From Kiritimatiellia bacterium (GTDB taxonomy: Bacteria; Verrucomicrobiota; Kiritimatiellia; RFP12; UBA1067), in contig JAGCAM010000085.1 in NCBI GenBank assembly GCA_017652705.1, positions 585-64,584 of the forward strand: DNA of 64,000 nucleotides, read 5' to 3'. The translations under genes and the position numbers were made by a program. Positions 13,067 through 20,326 of this stretch are shown one piece after another. The notes beneath the pieces were generated by a model. That model did not search any database. It saw nothing but the letters and a program-made list of their open reading frames with translations, and was not told where the DNA came from. The stretch's first letter is position 1. Each line of letters starts with the position of its first letter.

Positions 13067-14176
13067 CTACAGCCGCGACTTGAAATCATCGTAGCCGAAG
13101 CGTTTTAAGACCTTTACTGATCCCAGGCGAGTTCGGAGCGCGATGGACGGCAGCGGCATGCCGTTGAATGTGTTGTTCTTCACCATCGTGTAGATCGCCA
13201 TGTCCTCGAAGACGAGTTCGTCCCCGACCTTGAGCTGACGCGCGAACGAATAGTCTCCGATTACGTCCCCCGCGAGGCAGGTCGGTCCACCAAGCCGGTA
13301 GGTGTACTTCTTCTCGCCCGGCTGGCCCGATCCCCTGAGCGGCGGACGGTACGGCATTTCGATAACATCCGGCATGTGGCACTCCGCCGATGCATCGAGA
13401 ATCGCAATCGGCATTCCGTAGTCGACGATCTCCCGCACCGTCGTCACCAGCGTCCCCGCATTTAGCGCAATCGCCTCGCCGGGCTCGAGATACACCTCAA
13501 GGTTGGGATGACGCCGACGGAAGTCCTTTAGCGTCTTCACCAGCAATTTGACGTCGTATCCCTTGCGGGTGATGTGGTGTCCGCCCCCGAAGTTCACCCA
13601 CTTCATCTGCGGCAGGAACTCGCCGAACTTCGCCTCGAACACTTCGAGCGTCCGCGCCAGCACGTCCGCACCCTGCTCGCACATGGTGTGGAAATGCAAT
13701 CCCTCCACGCCGCGCAAGTCGTCCGCCTTGAGGAATTCCCGCGGCACTCCCAACCGGGAGCCAGGCGCACACGGATTGTAGATGTCGTGCTCGATCTCGC
13801 TGTAGCCGGGATTCACCCGCAGTCCGAGGCTCGCCTTGCCACGGCAGACGCGCCGCGCAAGCGCGAGCTGCGGCAGCGAATTGAGGACGATGTGATCCGA
13901 ATACTTGAGGACTTCCCGCAGTTCCGACACCGTAAAGGCCGGATTGAACACATGGTTCTCCCGACCTGGCATCTCCTCCGCCGCGAGCCGCGCCTCGTAG
14001 ACGCCGCTGGCGGTGGTGCCGTCAAGGTGCTTGGCGACAAGCGGATAGGTCGCGTAGCACGAAAACGCCTTCTGCGCAAGGAGAATCTTCACCCCCGCGC
14101 GGCTGCGCACCGAGGCGAGCAGCTCGAGGTTGCGCCCGAGCAACGCCTCGTCGATCACGTAGTACGGGGTCTTCAC
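13067..14176 (-). CDS. nspC: carboxynorspermidine/carboxyspermidine decarboxylase
   Basis: VKTPYYVIDEALL...HFHTMCEQ...NFGGGHHIT...GGPTCLAGDVIGDY has typical CANSDC (alanine racemase-fold PLP decarboxylase) features. GTG start 14176 overlaps the upstream stop (GTGA). Confidence 0.9.
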   Translation of the reverse strand: MKTPYYVIDEALLGRNLELLASVRSRAGVKILLAQKAFSCYATYPLVAKHLDGTTASGVYEARLAAEEMPGRENHVFNPAFTVSELREVLKYSDHIVLNSLPQLALARRVCRGKASLGLRVNPGYSEIEHDIYNPCAPGSRLGVPREFLKADDLRGVEGLHFHTMCEQGADVLARTLEVFEAKFGEFLPQMKWVNFGGGHHITRKGYDVKLLVKTLKDFRRRHPNLEVYLEPGEAIALNAGTLVTTVREIVDYGMPIAILDASAECHMPDVIEMPYRPPLRGSGQPGEKKYTYRLGGPTCLAGDVIGDYSFARQLKVGDELVFEDMAIYTMVKNNTFNGMPLPSIALRTRLGSVKVLKRFGYDDFKSRL

Positions 14177-15516
14177 GGAACCTTCACCGGATCGAAGTTT
14201 TCCTTCCAGGGGAGTCCGCGGCGCTTCAGTTCCGCCATGAACGGATCGGGATCGAACTCCTCGCAGGTGTGGACGCCCTTCGCCGTCCACTTTCCGTCGA
14301 GGAACATCTTCGCGCCAATCATCGCGGGGACGCCGGTCGTGTAGCTGATCGCCTGCGAGCCGACTTCGCGGTAGCACTTCTGGTGGTCGCATACGTTGTA
14401 CACGTAGTAGTCCACCGTCTTTCCGTCCTTCTTGCCGTGGAAGATGCAGCCTATGTTCGTCTTGCCCTTGGTGCGCGGACCGAGCGACGCGGGATCGGGC
14501 AGCAGCGTCTTGAGGAATTCGATGGGGACGATCTTGTGCCCCTGGAAGTCGACGGGGTCGATACGCGTGAGCCCCACGTTCTCAAGGCACTTGAGGTGCG
14601 TGAGATAGCTCTGACCAAAGGTCATGAAGAAGCGGATGCGCTTGATGCCCTTCAAGTTGCAGCCGAGCGACTCGAGCTCCTCGTGATGGAGCAGGTACAT
14701 GTCCTTCTTGCCGACCTTGTCGAACACGTATTCGCGCTTGATGGCCATCGGGTCCGTCTCCACCCACCAGCCCTTGTCGAACGCTTTTTTGTATTTGACC
14801 TTCACGCCGTGGGCGTCCTTCGACTTCTTCCCCTTCTCGCTCGTCCAATACGAGCCCTTCGCGGCGACTTCGCGGAGGTTGATCTCGGGGTTGAAGTTCG
14901 TGGCGAAGGGATAGCCGTGGTCCCCGCCGTTACAGTCGAGGATGTCCAGCGTCTCAATGGTGTCGAAGTAGTGCTTCTGCGCGTAGGCGGAGAACACCTG
15001 GGTGACGCCGGGGTCGAATCCGCAGCCGAGGATCGCGGTGAGCCCTGCCTGCTCGAACTTCTTGCGGTACGCCCACTGCCACGAATACTCGAAGTGCGCC
15101 TCGTCCGGCGGCTCGTAATTCGCGGTGTCGAGGTAGCTTACGCCGGCCTCGAGGCAGGCGTCCATGATCGCGAGGTCCTGATAGGGCAGCGCGATGTTCA
15201 TCACCAGGTCAGGCTTGAACTTGCGGATGAGCGCCACGAGGCGCGGCGTATCCATCGCGTCGATCTGGGCGGTCGAAACACGGGTTGAGATGTTGCGGGG
15301 TTGAGATGTTGAGATACGTGTCGAGGCGTTGAGATGCTGAGAAATCGAGTTGGGGGAGTACCACGGGCGGGACATGATGTCCTTGCGGATGGCCTTGCAC
15401 TTTGATTCAGTGCGCGAGGCGATCAGCAGGTGCCCGAAGGTCTCCGGGTCCTGGCACATCTTCGCGGCGGCGACGCCGGCGACACCGCCGGCACCGATGA
15501 GGAGCACTCTGCTCAT
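14173..15516 (-). CDS. carboxynorspermidine/carboxyspermidine dehydrogenase (saccharopine dehydrogenase family), carrying a repeat-derived in-frame insert
   Basis: MSRVLLIGAGGVAGV Rossmann start, then YLDTANYEPPDEAHFEYSWQWAYRKKF, GCGFDPGVT and ISYTTGVPA. The SPNSISQHLNASTRISTSQPRNISTRVST segment is encoded by the CTCAAC repeat. Confidence 0.9.
   Translation of the reverse strand: MSRVLLIGAGGVAGVAAAKMCQDPETFGHLLIASRTESKCKAIRKDIMSRPWYSPNSISQHLNASTRISTSQPRNISTRVSTAQIDAMDTPRLVALIRKFKPDLVMNIALPYQDLAIMDACLEAGVSYLDTANYEPPDEAHFEYSWQWAYRKKFEQAGLTAILGCGFDPGVTQVFSAYAQKHYFDTIETLDILDCNGGDHGYPFATNFNPEINLREVAAKGSYWTSEKGKKSKDAHGVKVKYKKAFDKGWWVETDPMAIKREYVFDKVGKKDMYLLHHEELESLGCNLKGIKRIRFFMTFGQSYLTHLKCLENVGLTRIDPVDFQGHKIVPIEFLKTLLPDPASLGPRTKGKTNIGCIFHGKKDGKTVDYYVYNVCDHQKCYREVGSQAISYTTGVPAMIGAKMFLDGKWTAKGVHTCEEFDPDPFMAELKRRGLPWKENFDPVKVP
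15281..15357. repeat. GTTGAGATG short-repeat cluster (sense CTCAAC arm) inside the dehydrogenase CDS
   Basis: The plus strand reads GGGTTGAGATGTTGCGGGGTTGAGATGTTGAGATACGTGTCGAGGCGTTGAGATGCTGAGAAATCGAGTTGGGGG. Confidence 0.85.
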
Positions 15517-15539
15517 GGGCGTGAATCCTTTCTTTTGTT

Positions 15540-15588
15540 GTTGACAACGACCTGAATTCCGTACTCCACCCGGAGCAGTTCAAAGGCG
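15540..15588 (-). promoter_or_regulatory. conserved 5' leader element, copy A (upstream of the dehydrogenase gene)
   Basis: Sense CGCCTTTGAACTGCTCCGGGTGGAGTACGGAATTCAGGTCGTTGTCAAC begins a few nt after the TATAAT box. It is near-identical to copy B at 19916-19966. Confidence 0.55.
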
Positions 15589-15593
15589 AGTGT

Positions 15594-15602
15594 ATTATAT
15601 CA
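15594..15602 (-). promoter_or_regulatory. extended -10 box TGATATAAT for the dehydrogenase-nspC unit
   Basis: The minus strand reads AATTTGATATAATACAC about 80 nt upstream of ATG 15516. Confidence 0.5.
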
Positions 15603-15694
15603 AATTCTCGTCCCGCTCATCTGGGAACTCTGACGTTTCGCGTAATCTCGAAGGCGGGATTCTGCTGCCGTGTCATGCCTCGGCGACGGCGTTA

Positions 15695-16246
15695 TCATCG
15701 CGCCAGCTTCACTTTCAATATCCAGCCGCCGCCGCCGGGCTTGCGGCCGGCCGGGTCGGGATGCGTCCAGTGGACAACACCGCCGCGCTCGTTGTCGATG
15801 TACTCGCCTCTGAAGATCACCTCGTCGCCCTGCTTCACGTCTTTGAGCCGCTCCCACTTGTCGATATTGTTGGCGATGAGAACCGTGCGTCCGGCCGGAT
15901 CGGCGACCAGGAGACGCTGGTGGCGCGGCGGATTGATGTCGTCCGGCAGCACCTTCTTGACAGTTCCCCGGCCCTCGATCCAGCTGCGGTTCTTAAAATC
16001 AGCGAAGAAGCACGGATCGGGAATCGTTGCCGTAATCTTCCTCACCCCGCGAACCACGGTGTTCGTTCTCGTTACCGGCGGCGTTCCCCGCACCGGTCTC
16101 CGGCCCGACAACCTCGCCGACGCGTCTTCACGTCCGCGCGCTTCCGTCGGATAGCCGTTGCGAAAGCTCCAATGATGCGTCACCGCGCCAATGCCCATCA
16201 CCAGCGCGAAAGCCGCCCACGCAAAAATCCAGGTCTTCGTTTTCAT
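15695..16246 (-). CDS. DUF3465-family membrane-anchored protein
   Basis: An N-terminal TM helix, then GTVKKVLPDD...HQRLLV...VLIANNID...GDEVIFRGEYIDNERGGVVHWTH. This matches the DUF3465 pattern as I recall it. Confidence 0.7.
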   Translation of the reverse strand: MKTKTWIFAWAAFALVMGIGAVTHHWSFRNGYPTEARGREDASARLSGRRPVRGTPPVTRTNTVVRGVRKITATIPDPCFFADFKNRSWIEGRGTVKKVLPDDINPPRHQRLLVADPAGRTVLIANNIDKWERLKDVKQGDEVIFRGEYIDNERGGVVHWTHPDPAGRKPGGGGWILKVKLAR

Positions 16247-16253
16247 GCCGTCT

Positions 16254-16262
16254 ATTATAGCA
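16254..16262 (-). promoter_or_regulatory. extended -10 box TGCTATAAT only 7 nt before the DUF3465 ATG (possible leaderless transcript)
   Basis: The minus strand reads TGAATTGACACGAACTGTGCTATAATAGACGGCATG within the 30-nt speB/DUF3465 gap. Confidence 0.35.
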
Positions 16263-16276
16263 CAGTTCGTGTCAAT

Positions 16277-17236
16277 TCATGCGGGCACCGATTTATCGCA
16301 CTGATCATTCTGAGGAAACCAACGTCCCGCCGCACCGGACAGGGCAAGGAGGCACTCGCGGAGGAACTTGCAGGCGAGGGCCGTGGAACGTCCCGATGGA
16401 TCGAGCGAGGGATTGAGTTCCACATTGTCGAGCGCGACCACATGGAAACGCGTGAGAATGTCCGTGATCGCGCAACGCAGTTCGTCGTAGTGCAGTCCGC
16501 CCGCCTCCTGGGTGCCCGTGCCCGGGAAGTCTGCGGGATCGAGCACGTCGAGGTCGATGGTGAGATAGACGGGGGTTGAGACGCTGAGCCGCTGAGGGGT
16601 TGAGACATCGCAACAACTCAACTTCTCAGCACTGTTCCAACTCAACTTCTCAACACCTTTACAAGTAAACTTCTCGGCAATCACATGCCCCGCCTTCATG
16701 AAGGCGAACTCTTCGCGGGTGCCGGAGCGGATTCCGAACTGGAAGATACGGCCGTCGCCGAGGAGGTCATAGCATCGCCGCATGACGGTGGCGTGCGAAA
16801 GCGTCTCGCCGAGGTATTCCTCTCGGAGGTCGGCGTGGGCGTCGAAGTGGATGATGCGCAGGCCGGGGAACCGCTTGAACGCGGCGCGGACCGCCCCGAG
16901 GGTGACGAGGTGCTCGCCGCCGAGCATGAACGGAATCTTGCCGTCGTCCAGTATCTCGCCTGCACGCGTCTCAATGGCCTCGAGCTGTCTCGCCGGAGAG
17001 CCGAACGGAAACTCCAAGTCTCCTGAATCGTAGAACGGGAAGTCTTCGAGGTCACGGTCTTGATACGGCGAGTACGTCTCGATGCCGTAGCTCTCGGCAC
17101 GAATCGCCGCAGGGCCGAACCGCGTTCCAGGACGGTAAGACGTCGTGGCATCCGCCCCCGCGCCGAACAGCACGACCTTCGCCCGATCATAGTCGTACGT
17201 CGCCCCGATAAAAACATTCCTGTTCGCTTTTTCCAT
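16277..17236 (-). CDS. speB: agmatinase-family ureohydrolase (agmatinase or aminopropylagmatine ureohydrolase) with palindromic repeat insert
   Basis: GGEHLVT, HFDAHADL and LTIDLDVLDPADFPGTGTQEAGG are arginase-fold Mn-binding motifs. ATG 17236 has AGGAG 5 nt upstream; an alternative GTG is at 17242. Confidence 0.9.
   Translation of the reverse strand: MEKANRNVFIGATYDYDRAKVVLFGAGADATTSYRPGTRFGPAAIRAESYGIETYSPYQDRDLEDFPFYDSGDLEFPFGSPARQLEAIETRAGEILDDGKIPFMLGGEHLVTLGAVRAAFKRFPGLRIIHFDAHADLREEYLGETLSHATVMRRCYDLLGDGRIFQFGIRSGTREEFAFMKAGHVIAEKFTCKGVEKLSWNSAEKLSCCDVSTPQRLSVSTPVYLTIDLDVLDPADFPGTGTQEAGGLHYDELRCAITDILTRFHVVALDNVELNPSLDPSGRSTALACKFLRECLLALSGAAGRWFPQNDQCDKSVPA
16570..16677. repeat. imperfect palindromic GTTGAG/CTCAAC element inserted in frame in speB
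   Basis: The plus strand reads GGGGGTTGAGACGCTGAGCCGCTGAGGGGTTGAGAC-atcgcaaca-ACTCAACTTCTCAGCACTGTTCCAACTCAACTTCTCAACACC. It encodes about 35 extra residues (AEKFTCKGVEKLSWNSAEKLSCCDVSTPQRLSVSTP) just before the conserved VYLTIDLDVLDP. Confidence 0.8.
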
Positions 17237-17239
17237 TTT

Positions 17240-17271
17240 CACTCCTCAGCCACTCAACGCCTCAACCTCTC
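17240..17271. repeat. CTCAAC repeat arm in the speE-speB spacer (sense GTTGAG; supplies the speB SD)
   Basis: Sense strand reads TGA-gatgacGAGAGGTTGAGGCGTTGAGTGGCTGAGGAGTGaaaATG. Confidence 0.8.
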
Positions 17272-17277
17272 GTCATC

Positions 17278-18141
17278 TCACTTGGTCTCCTCTTCCCTGA
17301 GGATGTCAAGCACGTAGTTGGGCAGGGCGAAGGCGCCGCGGTGGAGGGCGGTGTTGTAGTAGCGCGTGGTAATGCGCAGCTTGTTCCAACGCGCCTCGTC
17401 AAGGTTGCCGATGGGATGGTACTTCTTTGAGGCGAAGCCGAAGAGCCAGTGCCCCGAAGGATAGCTGGGGATGTGACACTGGTAGACGGTGGAGACGGGG
17501 AACTCCACCGCGATATGGCGGTGGGCATCGCGCACGGAACGCTGGTGCGCCGCGTAGAACGGCGACTCGTGCTGGTTGATGAGGATGCCGTCGTCGCGCA
17601 GCGCCTTGTAGCAGGTGCCGTAGAACTCGCGGGTGAAGAAGCCTTCGGCGGGTCCGTAGGGATCGGACGAGTCGACGATGATGAGGTCGTACTCGGCTTT
17701 CTTGCCGCGCACGTATCTGAGGCCCTCCTCGAACCACACCTTCACCCGCCTGTCCTTGAGCTTCGAGGACGTGAACGGCAGAAACTTCTTCGCCAGCAGC
17801 ACAACGTGCTTGTCCACCTCCACAAGGTCGATGGACTCTATGGCGCGGTACTTGACGAGTTCGCGCACCGTGCCGCCGTCGCCGCCGCCGATCACCAGCA
17901 CGTTCTTGACCCGCGGGTGCACGGCCATCGGCACGTGGGTGATCATCTCGTGGTAGATGAATTCGTCCTTTTCGGTGATCATCAGTCCGCCATCCAGAAC
18001 CAGCACGCGGCCGTAGGCGGGCGTGTCGAAGATGTCAATCTGCTGTACAGGGCTTTTTCTGGAAACGAGCTGCTCGCTCACCTTCATTGAGAAGCGCACG
18101 TCGCGCGTATGTTCGTCGGTGTACCAGAGTTCGGTTTGCAT
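17278..18141 (-). CDS. speE: spermidine synthase / aminopropyltransferase
   Basis: VLVIGGGDGGTVREL, DLIIVDSSDPYGPAEGFFT and YPSGHW motifs; 287 aa. Confidence 0.92.
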   Translation of the reverse strand: MQTELWYTDEHTRDVRFSMKVSEQLVSRKSPVQQIDIFDTPAYGRVLVLDGGLMITEKDEFIYHEMITHVPMAVHPRVKNVLVIGGGDGGTVRELVKYRAIESIDLVEVDKHVVLLAKKFLPFTSSKLKDRRVKVWFEEGLRYVRGKKAEYDLIIVDSSDPYGPAEGFFTREFYGTCYKALRDDGILINQHESPFYAAHQRSVRDAHRHIAVEFPVSTVYQCHIPSYPSGHWLFGFASKKYHPIGNLDEARWNKLRITTRYYNTALHRGAFALPNYVLDILREEETK

Positions 18142-18189
18142 GGGAGGTTGAGTGGTTGAGTTGTTGAGCGGTTGAGGGGTTGAGGGGGG
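18142..18189. repeat. five tandem GTTGAG units (sense CTCAAC arm) between the 4-helix-bundle ORF and speE
   Basis: The plus strand reads GGGAGGTTGAGTGGTTGAGTTGTTGAGCGGTTGAGGGGTTGAGGGGGG. It exactly fills the gap between the speE ATG and the TAA of the small ORF. Confidence 0.9.
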
Positions 18190-18390
18190 TTACACTTTTT
18201 TCTGGCGGAACGGTTCGCCGGAAAGTGATTGCATGAGGCGAAAGAGCTTAACCTGCACACGTTCAAGATCGCCATATATAGCACCAAAGTCCGACGAAAA
18301 CAAGCGAGCAGCGGTCAAGGCGTAGATCTTTTTAACTATCGCCCGTCCGTCCTTCCATATCTCAATATCTTCAAACTTTCTGAATGCCAT
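18190..18390 (-). CDS. four-helix-bundle protein (23S rRNA intervening-sequence protein / Avd-like family), shortened 66-aa copy
   Basis: MAFRKFEDIEIWKDGRAIVKKIYALTA resembles the family N-terminal helix (F.DL.VW..A..L...IY). Family members as I recall are about 115-125 aa, so this copy looks internally deleted. GC is about 46% by my count against GC-rich neighbours. SD GAGGAGA is upstream. Confidence 0.5.
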   Translation of the reverse strand: MAFRKFEDIEIWKDGRAIVKKIYALTAARLFSSDFGAIYGDLERVQVKLFRLMQSLSGEPFRQKKV

Positions 18391-18413
18391 TTCTCTCCTC
18401 AACTTCTCAACGC
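18391..18413. repeat. CTCAAC repeat arm (sense GTTGAG) between the speA stop and the 4-helix-bundle ORF
   Basis: Sense strand reads TAG-GCGTTGAGAAGTTGAGGAGAGAA-ATG. It is an inverted repeat of 18142-18189. Confidence 0.85.
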
Positions 18414-19895
18414 CTACGCAAGCACATTGATGTATTCGAGCGACATGTCCTCGGTGCCGGTCATGAAGCAACCCTTCTCCTTCGCGAAGAGAATGTGCGC
18501 CAGCACGTCCGGGGTAATCCGTTCGCCGGGGGCGACGATCGGGATGCCGGGCGGGTAGCTCATCACGAACTCGCCGGCGATCTGTCCCGTGGACTCCCGC
18601 ATCGCCACGCGGCGCTTTTTCGCGTAGAACGCCTCCTGCGGGGGCATGGCGATGACGGGGTCAATGTACTCGTGGTCGAAGAGCCCGGCGGGGCTCTTCT
18701 CGCGCTGGCGCTTGATCTCCTCGAGGGCGGAGATAAGGCGCTCGACGTCCATCATCCGGTCGCCGTTGGAGATGATTGCGAGCAGGTTGCCGATGTCGCC
18801 GAACTCGATCTGGATGCCGTAGTCGTCGCGGAGGTAGTCGTAGACCTCGATGCCGGCGAGCCCGATGTCGCGGGTGTGGACGGAGAGCTTCGTGCGGTCG
18901 AAGGCGAAGACGGTGTCGCCGTTGACGAGCTCGGGGCCGAACGCGTGGTACCCGCCGAGCTCGTTGATTTCGTCGCGCGCGTAGTCCGCGAAGTCCATCG
19001 TCTGCTGGTACATCTGCTTCCCCCGGAAGAACAGATTGCGGCGCGCGATGTCCAGCGACGAAAGCAGCAGGTAGGAGGCGGAGGTCGACTGTGTGAGGGT
19101 GATGACCTGGCGGACGTAGTCCGGATTCACCGGGCGGCGCGTGAGCAGGACCGAGCTCTGCGTTAGCGAGCCGCCGGTCTTGTGGATGGACGCCGCGGAC
19201 ATGTCGCACCCGGCGGCCATCGCGGAGACCGGGAGCTCGCCGTGGAAATAGAAGTGGGTGCCGTGCGCCTCGTCCGCCAGCACCGTCATACCCGCCTCGT
19301 GGGCGATTTTGACAATCTCCACGAGGTTGGAGCAGATGCCGTAGTAGGTGGGGTTGTTGACCAGGACCGCCCTGGCGGACGGATGCTCGGCGACTGCCTT
19401 GCGGACGTCGGCGACGCTCATTCCGAGCGGGATGCCGAGCTTCCGGTTGATGCCGGGGTTGATGTACACCGGAACCGCCCCGCTGACGACCAGCGCGTTG
19501 ATGGCGCTGCGGTGGACGTTGCGCGGCATGATTATCTCGTCGCCGCTCTTGACGGTGGCCATGATCATCGCCTGCACCGCCGAGGTGGTGCCGTTGACCA
19601 TGAAGAACGCGTCGTCGGAACCGAACGCCTCCGCCGTCAGCTCCTGCGCCTCGCGGATGACGGACACCGGATGCCCGAGGTTGTCGAGGGGTTTCATGGA
19701 GTTTACGTCCATCGCCATGGCCCGTGCGCCGAGATACTCGGTAAGCTCGGGATTCCCCCGACCGCCCTTGTGGGCGGGGACGTCGAAATGCGCGAGGCGG
19801 TTGATGCGCTGCGCATCAAGAGCCTCCGCCAGCGGCACGCGCCGCTGGCGCGCCGATACCTCGTTTTCCGCTTTCGCGGATACAGAACGTGCCAT
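18414..19895 (-). CDS. speA: PLP-dependent arginine decarboxylase (Orn/Lys/Arg decarboxylase family, Bacillus SpeA-type)
   Basis: 493 aa; FMVNGTTSAVQAMI, ADEAHG and SIHKTGGSLTQSS (PLP lysine region). The operon context with speB favours arginine as substrate. Confidence 0.85.
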   Translation of the reverse strand: MARSVSAKAENEVSARQRRVPLAEALDAQRINRLAHFDVPAHKGGRGNPELTEYLGARAMAMDVNSMKPLDNLGHPVSVIREAQELTAEAFGSDDAFFMVNGTTSAVQAMIMATVKSGDEIIMPRNVHRSAINALVVSGAVPVYINPGINRKLGIPLGMSVADVRKAVAEHPSARAVLVNNPTYYGICSNLVEIVKIAHEAGMTVLADEAHGTHFYFHGELPVSAMAAGCDMSAASIHKTGGSLTQSSVLLTRRPVNPDYVRQVITLTQSTSASYLLLSSLDIARRNLFFRGKQMYQQTMDFADYARDEINELGGYHAFGPELVNGDTVFAFDRTKLSVHTRDIGLAGIEVYDYLRDDYGIQIEFGDIGNLLAIISNGDRMMDVERLISALEEIKRQREKSPAGLFDHEYIDPVIAMPPQEAFYAKKRRVAMRESTGQIAGEFVMSYPPGIPIVAPGERITPDVLAHILFAKEKGCFMTGTEDMSLEYINVLA

Positions 19896-19915
19896 TCAAT
19901 CAACCCGTTGAGTAA

Positions 19916-19966
19916 GTTAACAACAGCCCGAATTCCATACTCCCCAGAGGAGCAGTTCAAGGGTCG
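19916..19966 (-). promoter_or_regulatory. conserved 5' leader element, copy B (upstream of speA)
   Basis: Sense CGACCCTTGAACTGCTCCTCTGGGGAGTATGGAATTCGGGCTGTTGTTAAC directly follows the -10-like box. It is a paralogue of 15540-15588. Confidence 0.55.
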
Positions 19967-19970
19967 CGTA

Positions 19971-19979
19971 AGAATATCA
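19971..19979 (-). promoter_or_regulatory. candidate -10 region TGATATTCT for speA
   Basis: The minus strand reads TTGTCA-N18-TATTCT, aligned with the TGATATAAT family. Confidence 0.4.
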
Positions 19980-20031
19980 TAATCAGCCGTCTCTTGACAA
20001 GGGGGTAATTTTATTTGCCGCGTAGTTTTCA

Positions 20032-20139: not shown

Positions 20140-20271
20140 ACAAAGCGTACGGCAGCCCGTGGCGGCCGCCGCGTTCCGCGAATACCATTTTTGCCGCGCT
20201 GTGTGGGAATCTGCGCGGCGGAGGTGATCCACAAGTGCACGGGGACGTTCCTATGCAACTATAGCGGCAAA

Positions 20272-20326
20272 GGGGTACCCCAAAATCGAAAAGTGGGTAC
20301 CCCAAAATCGAAAAGTGGGTACCCCC
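20272..20326. repeat. 2.5 copies of a 22-bp direct repeat, each carrying the palindrome GGGTACCC
   Basis: GGGGTACCCCAAAATCGAAAAGT / GGGTACCCCAAAATCGAAAAGT / GGGTACCCCC. Palindrome centres are 22 bp apart. Confidence 0.9.

Follow-up and report, generated by a model that had tools for sequence, protein, structure and literature searches.

Structure of the repeat element within speB

The speB gene of a Kiritimatiellia bacterium, located on the 64,000-nucleotide (nt) stretch of contig JAGCAM010000085.1 analyzed here (hereafter the window, to which all coordinates refer unless another locus is named), carries a palindromic repeat element in frame within its coding sequence (CDS). The gene (16277-17242, minus strand) belongs to a polyamine operon and encodes an agmatinase of 321 amino acids (aa) with an arginase fold, which matched Pfam Arginase PF00491 with an E value of 3e-74 over 278 of the 280 model positions. 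The element comprises 104 nt (16575-16678, sense strand minus) and consists of 13 consecutive 8-nt units in a single register without any phase break, nine of the GTTGAGNN type (G arm, 16607-16678) and four of the NNCTCAAC type (C arm, 16575-16606), arranged in sense as follows:

16655-16678, minus strand: outer G-type units, weaker and in the same register, GCCGAGAA GTTTACTT GTAAAGGT, lying over conserved host codons
16607-16654, minus strand: G arm proper, six 8-nt units GTTGAGAA GTTGAGTT GGAACAGT GCTGAGAA GTTGAGTT GTTGCGAT, equal to two 24-nt tandem copies and encoding VEKLSWNSAEKLSCCD
16575-16606, minus strand: C arm, units GTCTCAAC CCCTCAGC GGCTCAGC GTCTCAAC in register with the G arm, encoding VSTPQRLSVST

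The direct repeat within the G arm showed 83% identity. The two arms were 74-86% complementary to each other, with only about 10 nt and no PF05635 open reading frame (ORF) between them, this copy being cargo-less. The element was translated in silico as AEKFTCKGVEKLSWNSAEKLSCCDVSTPQRLSVSTPVYLTIDLD, and the peptide stretch at the insert reads VEKLSWNSAEKLSCCDVSTPQRLSVSTP. In these respects the locus was as given in a preliminary description made from the letters of the window, which had reported the arm sequences as imperfect reverse complements, their coordinates and translation, and their place just before VYLTIDLDVLDP. The same description had pointed to a sequence common to this element and to an arm beside a small four-helix-bundle ORF of the same operon; the 14-mer GTTGAGAAGTTGAG was indeed found verbatim at both 16641-16654 and 18398-18411, and when up to two mismatches were allowed the window contained 13 matches vs 0.28 expected.

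Maintenance of the reading frame

As 8 leaves a remainder of 2 when divided by 3, each 8-nt unit begins in another codon phase than the one before it, all three phases being passed through in turn. In phase 2, a perfect GTTGAG is read as xGT-TGA-G, and three perfect G units in a row therefore present TGA in all three frames; no frame of the complementary CTCAAC array contains a stop. In speB, the phase-1 and phase-3 units were good copies (GTTGAGAA, GTTGAGTT, GCTGAGAA and GTTGAGTT), and the three phase-2 units were exactly the degenerate ones (GTAAAGGT, GGAACAGT and GTTGCGAT), as in GTTGCG, where TGA has become TGC. Tandem Repeats Finder accordingly reported a period of 24 nt (2.8 copies) for the G arm rather than 8 nt, because every third G unit is altered and TGA is thereby avoided. 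Avoidance of the stop-generating register had been noticed before, and turned out to be stronger than claimed, since precisely the phase-2 units are mutated. Such phase-specific decay is the pattern expected under selection for an open frame and, at the level of the nucleotide sequence, is direct evidence of frame upkeep. The insert is thus most likely translated, because the frame is conserved through the element.

Comparison with orthologs and position of the insert in the protein

To judge from its sequence, speB is intact, with an open ORF and every catalytic motif kept. The binuclear-metal motifs of the arginase/agmatinase family (GGxH, DAHxD, DxDxxDP and the E in VELxP) were all present, and the corresponding GGEH, HFDAHAD, IDLDVLDP and VELNP formed invariant columns in the ortholog alignment. 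The best solved relative was the agmatinase 3LHL (E = 3.5e-75), onto which an AlphaFold2 (AF2) model of the speB product was superposed with a template modeling (TM) score of 0.86 (normalized to the target) and a root-mean-square deviation of 2.8 Å. The invariant motifs and this superposition speak against a pseudogene, one of the two outcomes that would have undermined the preliminary description.

The other outcome, an ancestral loop, was examined by aligning the window protein with 21 Kiritimatiellia-type agmatinases (69-89% identity). The loop between FMK and VYLT measured 24 aa in most of the orthologs (type AGHVxTEPFSxKTLxxLSFPEGTP) vs 41 aa in the window protein, and the insert peptide was not found in any of the 21 aligned orthologs outside the immediate clade. 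The net gain over the commonest ortholog loop was thus 17 aa, or 51 nt, so that of the insert of about 105 nt proposed earlier the element itself, with its 104 nt, was substantiated but not a gain of that size. The outer three G-type units cover former host codons. These units encode AEKFTCKG vs TEPFSCKT in the orthologs, with K191 where more than 90% of the orthologs have P.

A homologous insert was present in P0002 (locus L001, 88% aa identity), which comes from an independent assembly, and a near-identical one in P0007. The L001 insert shared the GTTGCG fix and differed by several indels, with 80% identity over the aligned insert vs 85-88% in the flanks. In the window lineage the array has also spread, by three further units, over host codons, where the near-invariant EPF has become EKF; in L001, the host codons at these positions showed no similarity to the unit. 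The same loop varied elsewhere as well. In the Kiritimatiellia-type agmatinase P0017 (L124, 1195-1281), it contained another in-frame insert with two hairpins resembling repetitive extragenic palindromes (REP), GCAATGGCG-TCCT-CGCCATTGC, within a 42-45-nt direct repeat, together with a third hairpin (z = -4.3). L125 and L126 had 14 additional aa in the loop without excess structure, the loop of L002 may hold a decayed C array, and 3LHL has 26 aa in the corresponding loop. The FMK-VYLT loop may be a repeated landing site for palindromic repeats.

In the AF2 model (mean predicted local distance difference test score, pLDDT, 69), the insert was placed between the helix 194-198 and the strand 224-229 as a low-confidence coil, residues 202-216 having a pLDDT below 50 and no secondary structure. 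The loop leads into the strand bearing the VYLTIDLD motif. In the arginase fold, the metal ligands are located at the C-terminal ends of the strands; since the insert precedes the N-terminal end of its strand, the topology of the fold suggests that the loop lies on the edge or face of the sheet opposite the metal site.

RNA folding of the element

The 93-nt sense RNA of the element was predicted to fold with -38.2 kcal/mol vs -22.1 ± 3.0 kcal/mol for 200 dinucleotide shuffles, none of which was as stable (z = -5.3), and the C arm paired with the G arm in both the minimum free energy (MFE) and the centroid folds. A 116-nt version gave z = -3.4. The comparison with shuffled controls called for in the preliminary description thus supported a hairpin. 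The L001 copy, however, reached only z = -1.5, and this weaker hairpin argues against strong selection on the structure. An Rfam scan of window positions 14000-20000 returned three chance-level matches and no rRNA, and a scan of eight hairpin loci found only sub-threshold matches resembling miRNA precursors over the elements.

Related arrays in the polyamine operon

The surrounding genes and arrays, in the order of transcription, are as follows:

18414-19895, minus strand: arginine decarboxylase gene, polyamine operon member
18398-18411, minus strand: cassette G arm, two units, GTTGAGAAGTTGAG, right after the arginine decarboxylase stop and running into a Shine-Dalgarno (SD)-like GAGGAG before the ORF
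18190-18390, minus strand: 66-aa four-helix-bundle ORF between the decarboxylase gene and speE, a PF05635 / TIGR02436 remnant, apparently internally deleted (custom hidden Markov model (HMM), phmmer)
18147-18184, minus strand: cassette C arm, five units CTCAACNN, ending 5 nt before the speE start codon
17278-18141, minus strand: spermidine synthase gene speE, polyamine operon member
17245-17266, minus strand: solo G arm GTTGAGGC GTTGAGTG GCTGAGGA, which takes up the speE-speB spacer and contains the SD-like GAGGAG of speB
16277-17242, minus strand: agmatinase gene speB (PF00491)
15695-16246, minus strand: DUF3465 gene, between speB and the carboxynorspermidine-dehydrogenase-like gene
15284-15341, minus strand: solo C-type array, in frame inside the carboxynorspermidine-dehydrogenase-like gene
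14173-15516, minus strand: carboxynorspermidine-dehydrogenase-like gene, polyamine operon member

The cassette (18147-18411), 1.7 kb upstream of the speB element in the same operon, carries arms like those of that element. In sense it reads decarboxylase stop, GTTGAGAAGTTGAG-GAGAGAA-ATG, ORF, TAA, CCCCC, five copies of CTCAACNN, and CTCCC-ATG of speE. The 66-aa ORF had no direct match in Pfam or NCBIfam even at E = 10, and a word-based homolog search returned only the ORF itself. A phmmer search against 1.8e9 representatives found proteins of 107-156 aa, which are PF05635 '23S rRNA intervening sequence' proteins, and a custom HMM built from these matches recognized the 66-aa ORF with E = 4.8e-11. 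The make-up of the ORF suggests an internal deletion that has fused helix 1 to helix 4. Residues 15-49 of this remnant were also matched by the large proteins P0122, P0123 and P0125 (1059-2491 aa), each in five to six separate stretches with E values down to 4.5e-37.

The whole cassette is absent from L001, which has a plain 28-nt spacer at this position, so that the cassette is a presence/absence difference between close relatives. Its arms paired in the MFE fold with an energy no better than that of shuffles (z = -0.23), probably because just two G units remain. The array homologous to the solo G arm at 17245-17266 provides, at 3465-3478 of L001, the TGA stop of speE, 3 nt before the speB ATG. 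The solo C-type array at 15284-15341 lies within a 24-aa in-frame insertion (KDIMSRPWYSPNSISQHLNASTRI), which runs on into the repeat-like STSQPRNISTRVS; L002 lacks this insertion, and in L001 it is shorter by 12 aa. The five arrays of the 64-kb window all fall within 15284-18411, that is, in one operon and within 3.3 kb.

As to the neighboring genes, the DUF3465 gene occupies the same place in L001 (4503-5039), and in L002 speB and the carboxynorspermidine-dehydrogenase-like gene directly overlap. A 22-nt tandem repeat, AAAGTGGGTACCCCAAAATCGA, at 20269-20325 (2.6 copies, 97% match, with the palindrome GGTACC inside) precedes the arginine decarboxylase gene, about 370-430 nt from its start codon, and may belong to an operator or promoter region.

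Related elements in other genomes

As a reverse test, four further PF05635 loci were inspected among homologs of the database protein P0126 (L248, L249, L250 and the strain contigs L251/252/254). A scan with the NIAEG motif for four-helix-bundle genes near arrays proved too insensitive and gave way to the custom HMM. In L248, L250 and L251/252/254, the gene was preceded by a G-rich tandem array extending to the ATG and followed, no more than about 12 nt past the stop, by a complementary C-rich array; in L249, the G array was present and the contig ended after a single CTCAAC. The array periods at these loci were 7, 9, 7 and 8 nt, and the core was GTTGAG, or GGTGAG in L251-254. The number of units differed among L251, L252 and L254, and all four loci were inside co-oriented operons. 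In the intact cassette of L250, the arrays formed a closing stem (-224 vs -156 ± 7 kcal/mol, z = -10). The same layout of G array, ORF and C array was seen in a Desulfobacteraceae locus (L117), where a frameshifted TIGR02436 gene lies between two oxidoreductase subunit genes. Most of the database PF05635 proteins related to the window remnant were on contigs of only 0.5-1.5 kb, as would be expected if assemblies break at the arrays.

A scan of one genome per species with the pattern GTTGAGNNGTTGAGNNGTTGAG gave at least 120 loci, and the counts that follow refer to the matches listed. These came from Bacteroidota, Verrucomicrobiota, Planctomycetota, Desulfobacterota, Acidobacteriota, Gemmatimonadota, Kiritimatiellaeota and others. 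In many of them, a G arm was followed by a short loop and then by a C arm, and several near-identical copies occurred at separate loci of one Haliscomenobacter metagenome-assembled genome (MAG). The unit spacing was 8 nt in 482 of about 600 cases, and all 29 close arm pairs ran from G to C, with none from C to G. These cargo-less G-to-C hairpins, found on contigs of at least five phyla, were mostly intergenic: 13 lay between tandem genes, nine between convergent and two between divergent ones, often filling the whole spacer. In a Verrucomicrobiae MAG (L020, 1510-1586 and 1595-1689), a GTTGAG hairpin was situated 8 nt from the signal recognition particle RNA gene (Rfam RF00169, 48.9 bits). The 27 solo arrays listed inside long ORFs always had CTCAAC in the sense strand, an orientation forced by the stop rule. 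None of the 29 hairpins was inside a CDS, which says nothing about their true share in genes, as the search pattern of three perfect G units closes all frames by construction.

A two-unit pattern was used for metagenomes and yielded at least 121 hairpins, five of the 121 listed having an open frame through the element and one being a verified in-frame insert. The latter lies in a metagenomic RecG of 726 aa (L197, 7896-7940), reads GAT GTT GAG AAG TTG AGA AGT TCA GAA GTT GAG TCT CAA CCT CTC AAC, encodes DVEKLRSSEVESQPLN and folds with z = -4.5. Its third unit is GTTCAG (TGA to TCA), its frame is the same as in speB and its peptide is similar. In-frame copies thus seem rare, with about one verified among the 121 hairpins listed. 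A scan of viral contigs returned 44 stretches.

Origin of the speB insert

Taken together, these data make it probable that a palindromic repeat element has left a copy without cargo in speB, the arms of the element being tandem octamer arrays, GTTGAGNN on the 5' side and the complement NNCTCAAC on the 3' side. The shared arm sequence suggests that the copy stems from the cassette family rather than from duplication of host codons. It would represent a tolerated insertion, similar to the Rickettsia palindromic elements (RPE), in a variable, low-confidence loop of the enzyme; as the same arms also flank PF05635 genes in several phyla, it would be a rare case of such an element surviving inside a CDS.

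The course of events may be pictured as follows. In the full form, the arms would enclose a small PF05635 gene and pair into a long stem that closes it off, much as 23S rRNA intervening sequences do; the cassette 1.7 kb upstream would be a decaying example of this form. The short form, the arms alone as a hairpin, would be scattered between genes in several phyla, and one such copy may have become fixed in speB at a loop of variable length. It could have survived there in the reading frame GTT-GAG-AAG-TTG, every third G unit (xGT-TGA-G) having been destroyed or repaired from TGA to TGC; since every third unit falls in the TGA register and must be altered, the length would change in 24-nt steps. 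The arrays presumably grow and shrink by slippage. As all five in the 64 kb are clustered in one operon, a new copy is probably made from an array close by, through template switching or gene conversion. The insert would then form a disordered loop of about 17-27 aa that the enzyme tolerates. If the mRNA hairpin has effects of its own, for instance by being cleaved by RNase III or by making ribosomes pause, these would be side effects and not the reason why the insert is present. Signs of turnover were seen in the cassette present in the window and absent in L001, in the variable unit number of L251, L252 and L254, and in the near-identical Haliscomenobacter copies.

Several points weigh against this account. 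No target-site duplication was seen, either between the filled cassette site and the empty site of L001 or at the borders of the speB insert. Of the earlier proposal of a derivative resembling a miniature inverted-repeat transposable element (MITE) or a solo stem, the solo stem is supported by the PF05635 remnant, the recurrent layout and the cargo-less hairpins elsewhere, and a MITE in the strict sense was not established. No transposase was linked to the arrays, and no search for a transposase partner was made. All five arrays are confined to one operon, which is not the pattern of a MITE dispersed in many copies and could also reflect a function tied to this locus. Because the outer three G-type units overlap host codons, some of the array may be the product of growth in place. 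The four PF05635 loci of the reverse test are 60-70% identical to each other and hence not phylogenetically independent. The collection scans were pattern-based and biased against coding G arms, and the matches listed do not allow frequencies to be derived. Translation and enzyme activity, finally, are deduced from the sequence.

Growth of the array in place would offer a different origin: tandem duplication of a 24-nt stretch of host codons, or slippage over it (AEKFTCKG to VEKLSWNS to AEKLSCCD), the likeness of the arms being due to convergence or later gene conversion. The 2.8 tandem copies of the 24-nt unit, with the outermost over conserved host codons, and the clustering of the arrays in one operon are compatible with it. 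The corresponding host codons of L001 and the other orthologs, however, bear no likeness to the unit, so that the host-like copy appears derived and not ancestral; a host duplication would also leave unexplained the complementary C arm in the same 8-nt register and the equivalent G-to-C hairpin with a similar peptide in the unrelated recG. We therefore regard such an origin as quite unlikely. We also consider it unlikely that selection maintains the hairpin or the peptide as a functional part of speB, for instance a site for RNase III or other processing, a translational pause tuning the expression of the polyamine operon, or a loop with a role in the protein. In favor of such a role, two lineages whose proteins differ by 12% have both kept the insert, L124 has another hairpin-rich insert in this loop, and RNase III is known to cut the stems of 23S intervening sequences (PMC4990558). 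Most orthologs, on the other hand, lack any insert, the L001 copy has acquired several indels and lost most of its excess stability (z = -1.5 vs -5.3), the peptide is predicted to be disordered, and no Rfam family was matched. An ancestral variable loop, a pseudogene or an assembly artifact is highly improbable and already largely refuted: although the loop varies in length among agmatinases, with 26 aa in 3LHL and 14 additional residues without a hairpin in some Kiritimatiellia, the peptide occurs in no ortholog outside the immediate clade, the ORF is open with all catalytic motifs, and the independent assembly L001 contains the homologous insert.

A wider and more tentative possibility is that PF05635 genes travel across phyla as a cassette ended by inverted 7-9-nt GTTGAG-type arrays. 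The G array would act as an all-frame stop and SD pad, and the paired arrays as an RNase III-type stem, harmless in any transcribed region, whether rRNA, operon spacers or, after loss of the ORF, a CDS. The speB, carboxynorspermidine-dehydrogenase-like and recG inserts would then be footprints of one element, which would connect 23S rRNA intervening sequences with the many orphan 'four helix bundle protein' genes and with a family of REP-like hairpins of which no description was found in Rfam or the literature searched. The layout of G array, PF05635 gene and C array may explain the origin of 23S rRNA intervening sequences and of unexplained 'four helix bundle protein' genes, as well as why such genes often sit on very short metagenomic contigs. 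For protein evolution, the insert carries a built-in record of selection, the TGA register being repaired every third unit, and it shows how a protein can take in a repeat whose perfect form stops translation in every frame. For annotation, the arrays create spurious peptides (VEKL...SQPLN, STPQRL, ISTSQP), stop codons at gene junctions and SD-like sequences, which is of concern for gene callers and aligners.

Comparison with known systems

RPE, which occur in Rickettsia, measure about 150 bp, and each family has its own conserved peptide (Ogata et al., 2000, as summarized in PMC10969869). Like the speB element, they are short palindromic repeats lying in frame in unrelated housekeeping genes, the extra peptides being compatible with fold and function, and the family is also intergenic (PMC10969869). 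The speB element differs from them in its arms of tandem 8-nt units GTTGAGNN, its Kiritimatiellia host, its distribution over several phyla and its link to PF05635. RPE are defined by similarity to a consensus and a Rickettsiales host; the host here, to judge from the source names of its closest homologs, belongs to Kiritimatiellia, and the likeness is one of behavior only, the two being set apart by description. To our knowledge, there are few clear cases outside Rickettsia of palindromic repeats inside essential enzyme genes.

The 23S rRNA intervening sequences of Coxiella and Leptospira, with an S23p / PF05635 ORF, have terminal inverted repeats and a long stem (28 bp in Coxiella), and ORF-less versions exist (PMC4990558). 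They are seen as selfish and horizontally acquired, are located in helices 9, 25 or 45, and are excised by RNase III (PMC4990558). The elements described here share with them a PF05635 four-helix-bundle ORF bracketed by stem-forming inverted repeats and the existence of arms-only versions; unlike them, the cassette is situated between protein genes of an operon and the arms-only copy inside a CDS, and not in a 23S helix. No description of arms made of tandem 7-9-nt units was found in the literature searched.

The REP, bacterial interspersed mosaic elements (BIME) and REP doublets forming hairpins (REPIN) of proteobacteria are abundant hairpin repeats with two inverted arms and a loop in the spacers of co-oriented or convergent genes, and REP arms are single imperfect palindromes mobilized by REP-associated tyrosine transposases (RAYT). 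Unlike these, the GTTGAG hairpins have arms made of tandem arrays, which always follow each other from G to C (29 to 0 among the matches listed). The terminal inverted repeats of a MITE have a counterpart in the arms of the speB element, which are 74-86% complementary.

Among described repeats, the nearest to GTTGAG-type arms, for which themselves no description was found in the literature searched, were the octamer pairs of Geobacter metallireducens (PMC2700814). These class 1 sites consist of four GTTGCTYN units, tandem octamers facing each other on opposite strands at a variable distance (24 pairs), often lie between operon genes such as nifD/nifK, and are present in the genome of only one member of a pair of species (PMC2700814). 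They have been read as sites of a global regulator of the IHF/HU type and are frequent targets of ISGme8 of the IS110 family (PMC2700814). Unlike the GTTGAG arrays, they have the core GTTGCT, and no link to PF05635 or to coding sequences is reported for them (PMC2700814).

Array-flanked PF05635 cassettes together with their hairpin derivatives are thus a pattern that was not found described in Rfam or the literature searched, and the speB insert cannot be filed under RPE, 23S intervening sequences, REP/BIME or the Geobacter sites. Its closest analog in behavior is the RPE and in architecture the 23S rRNA intervening sequence, and its likeness to REP/BIME is one of genomic habit.

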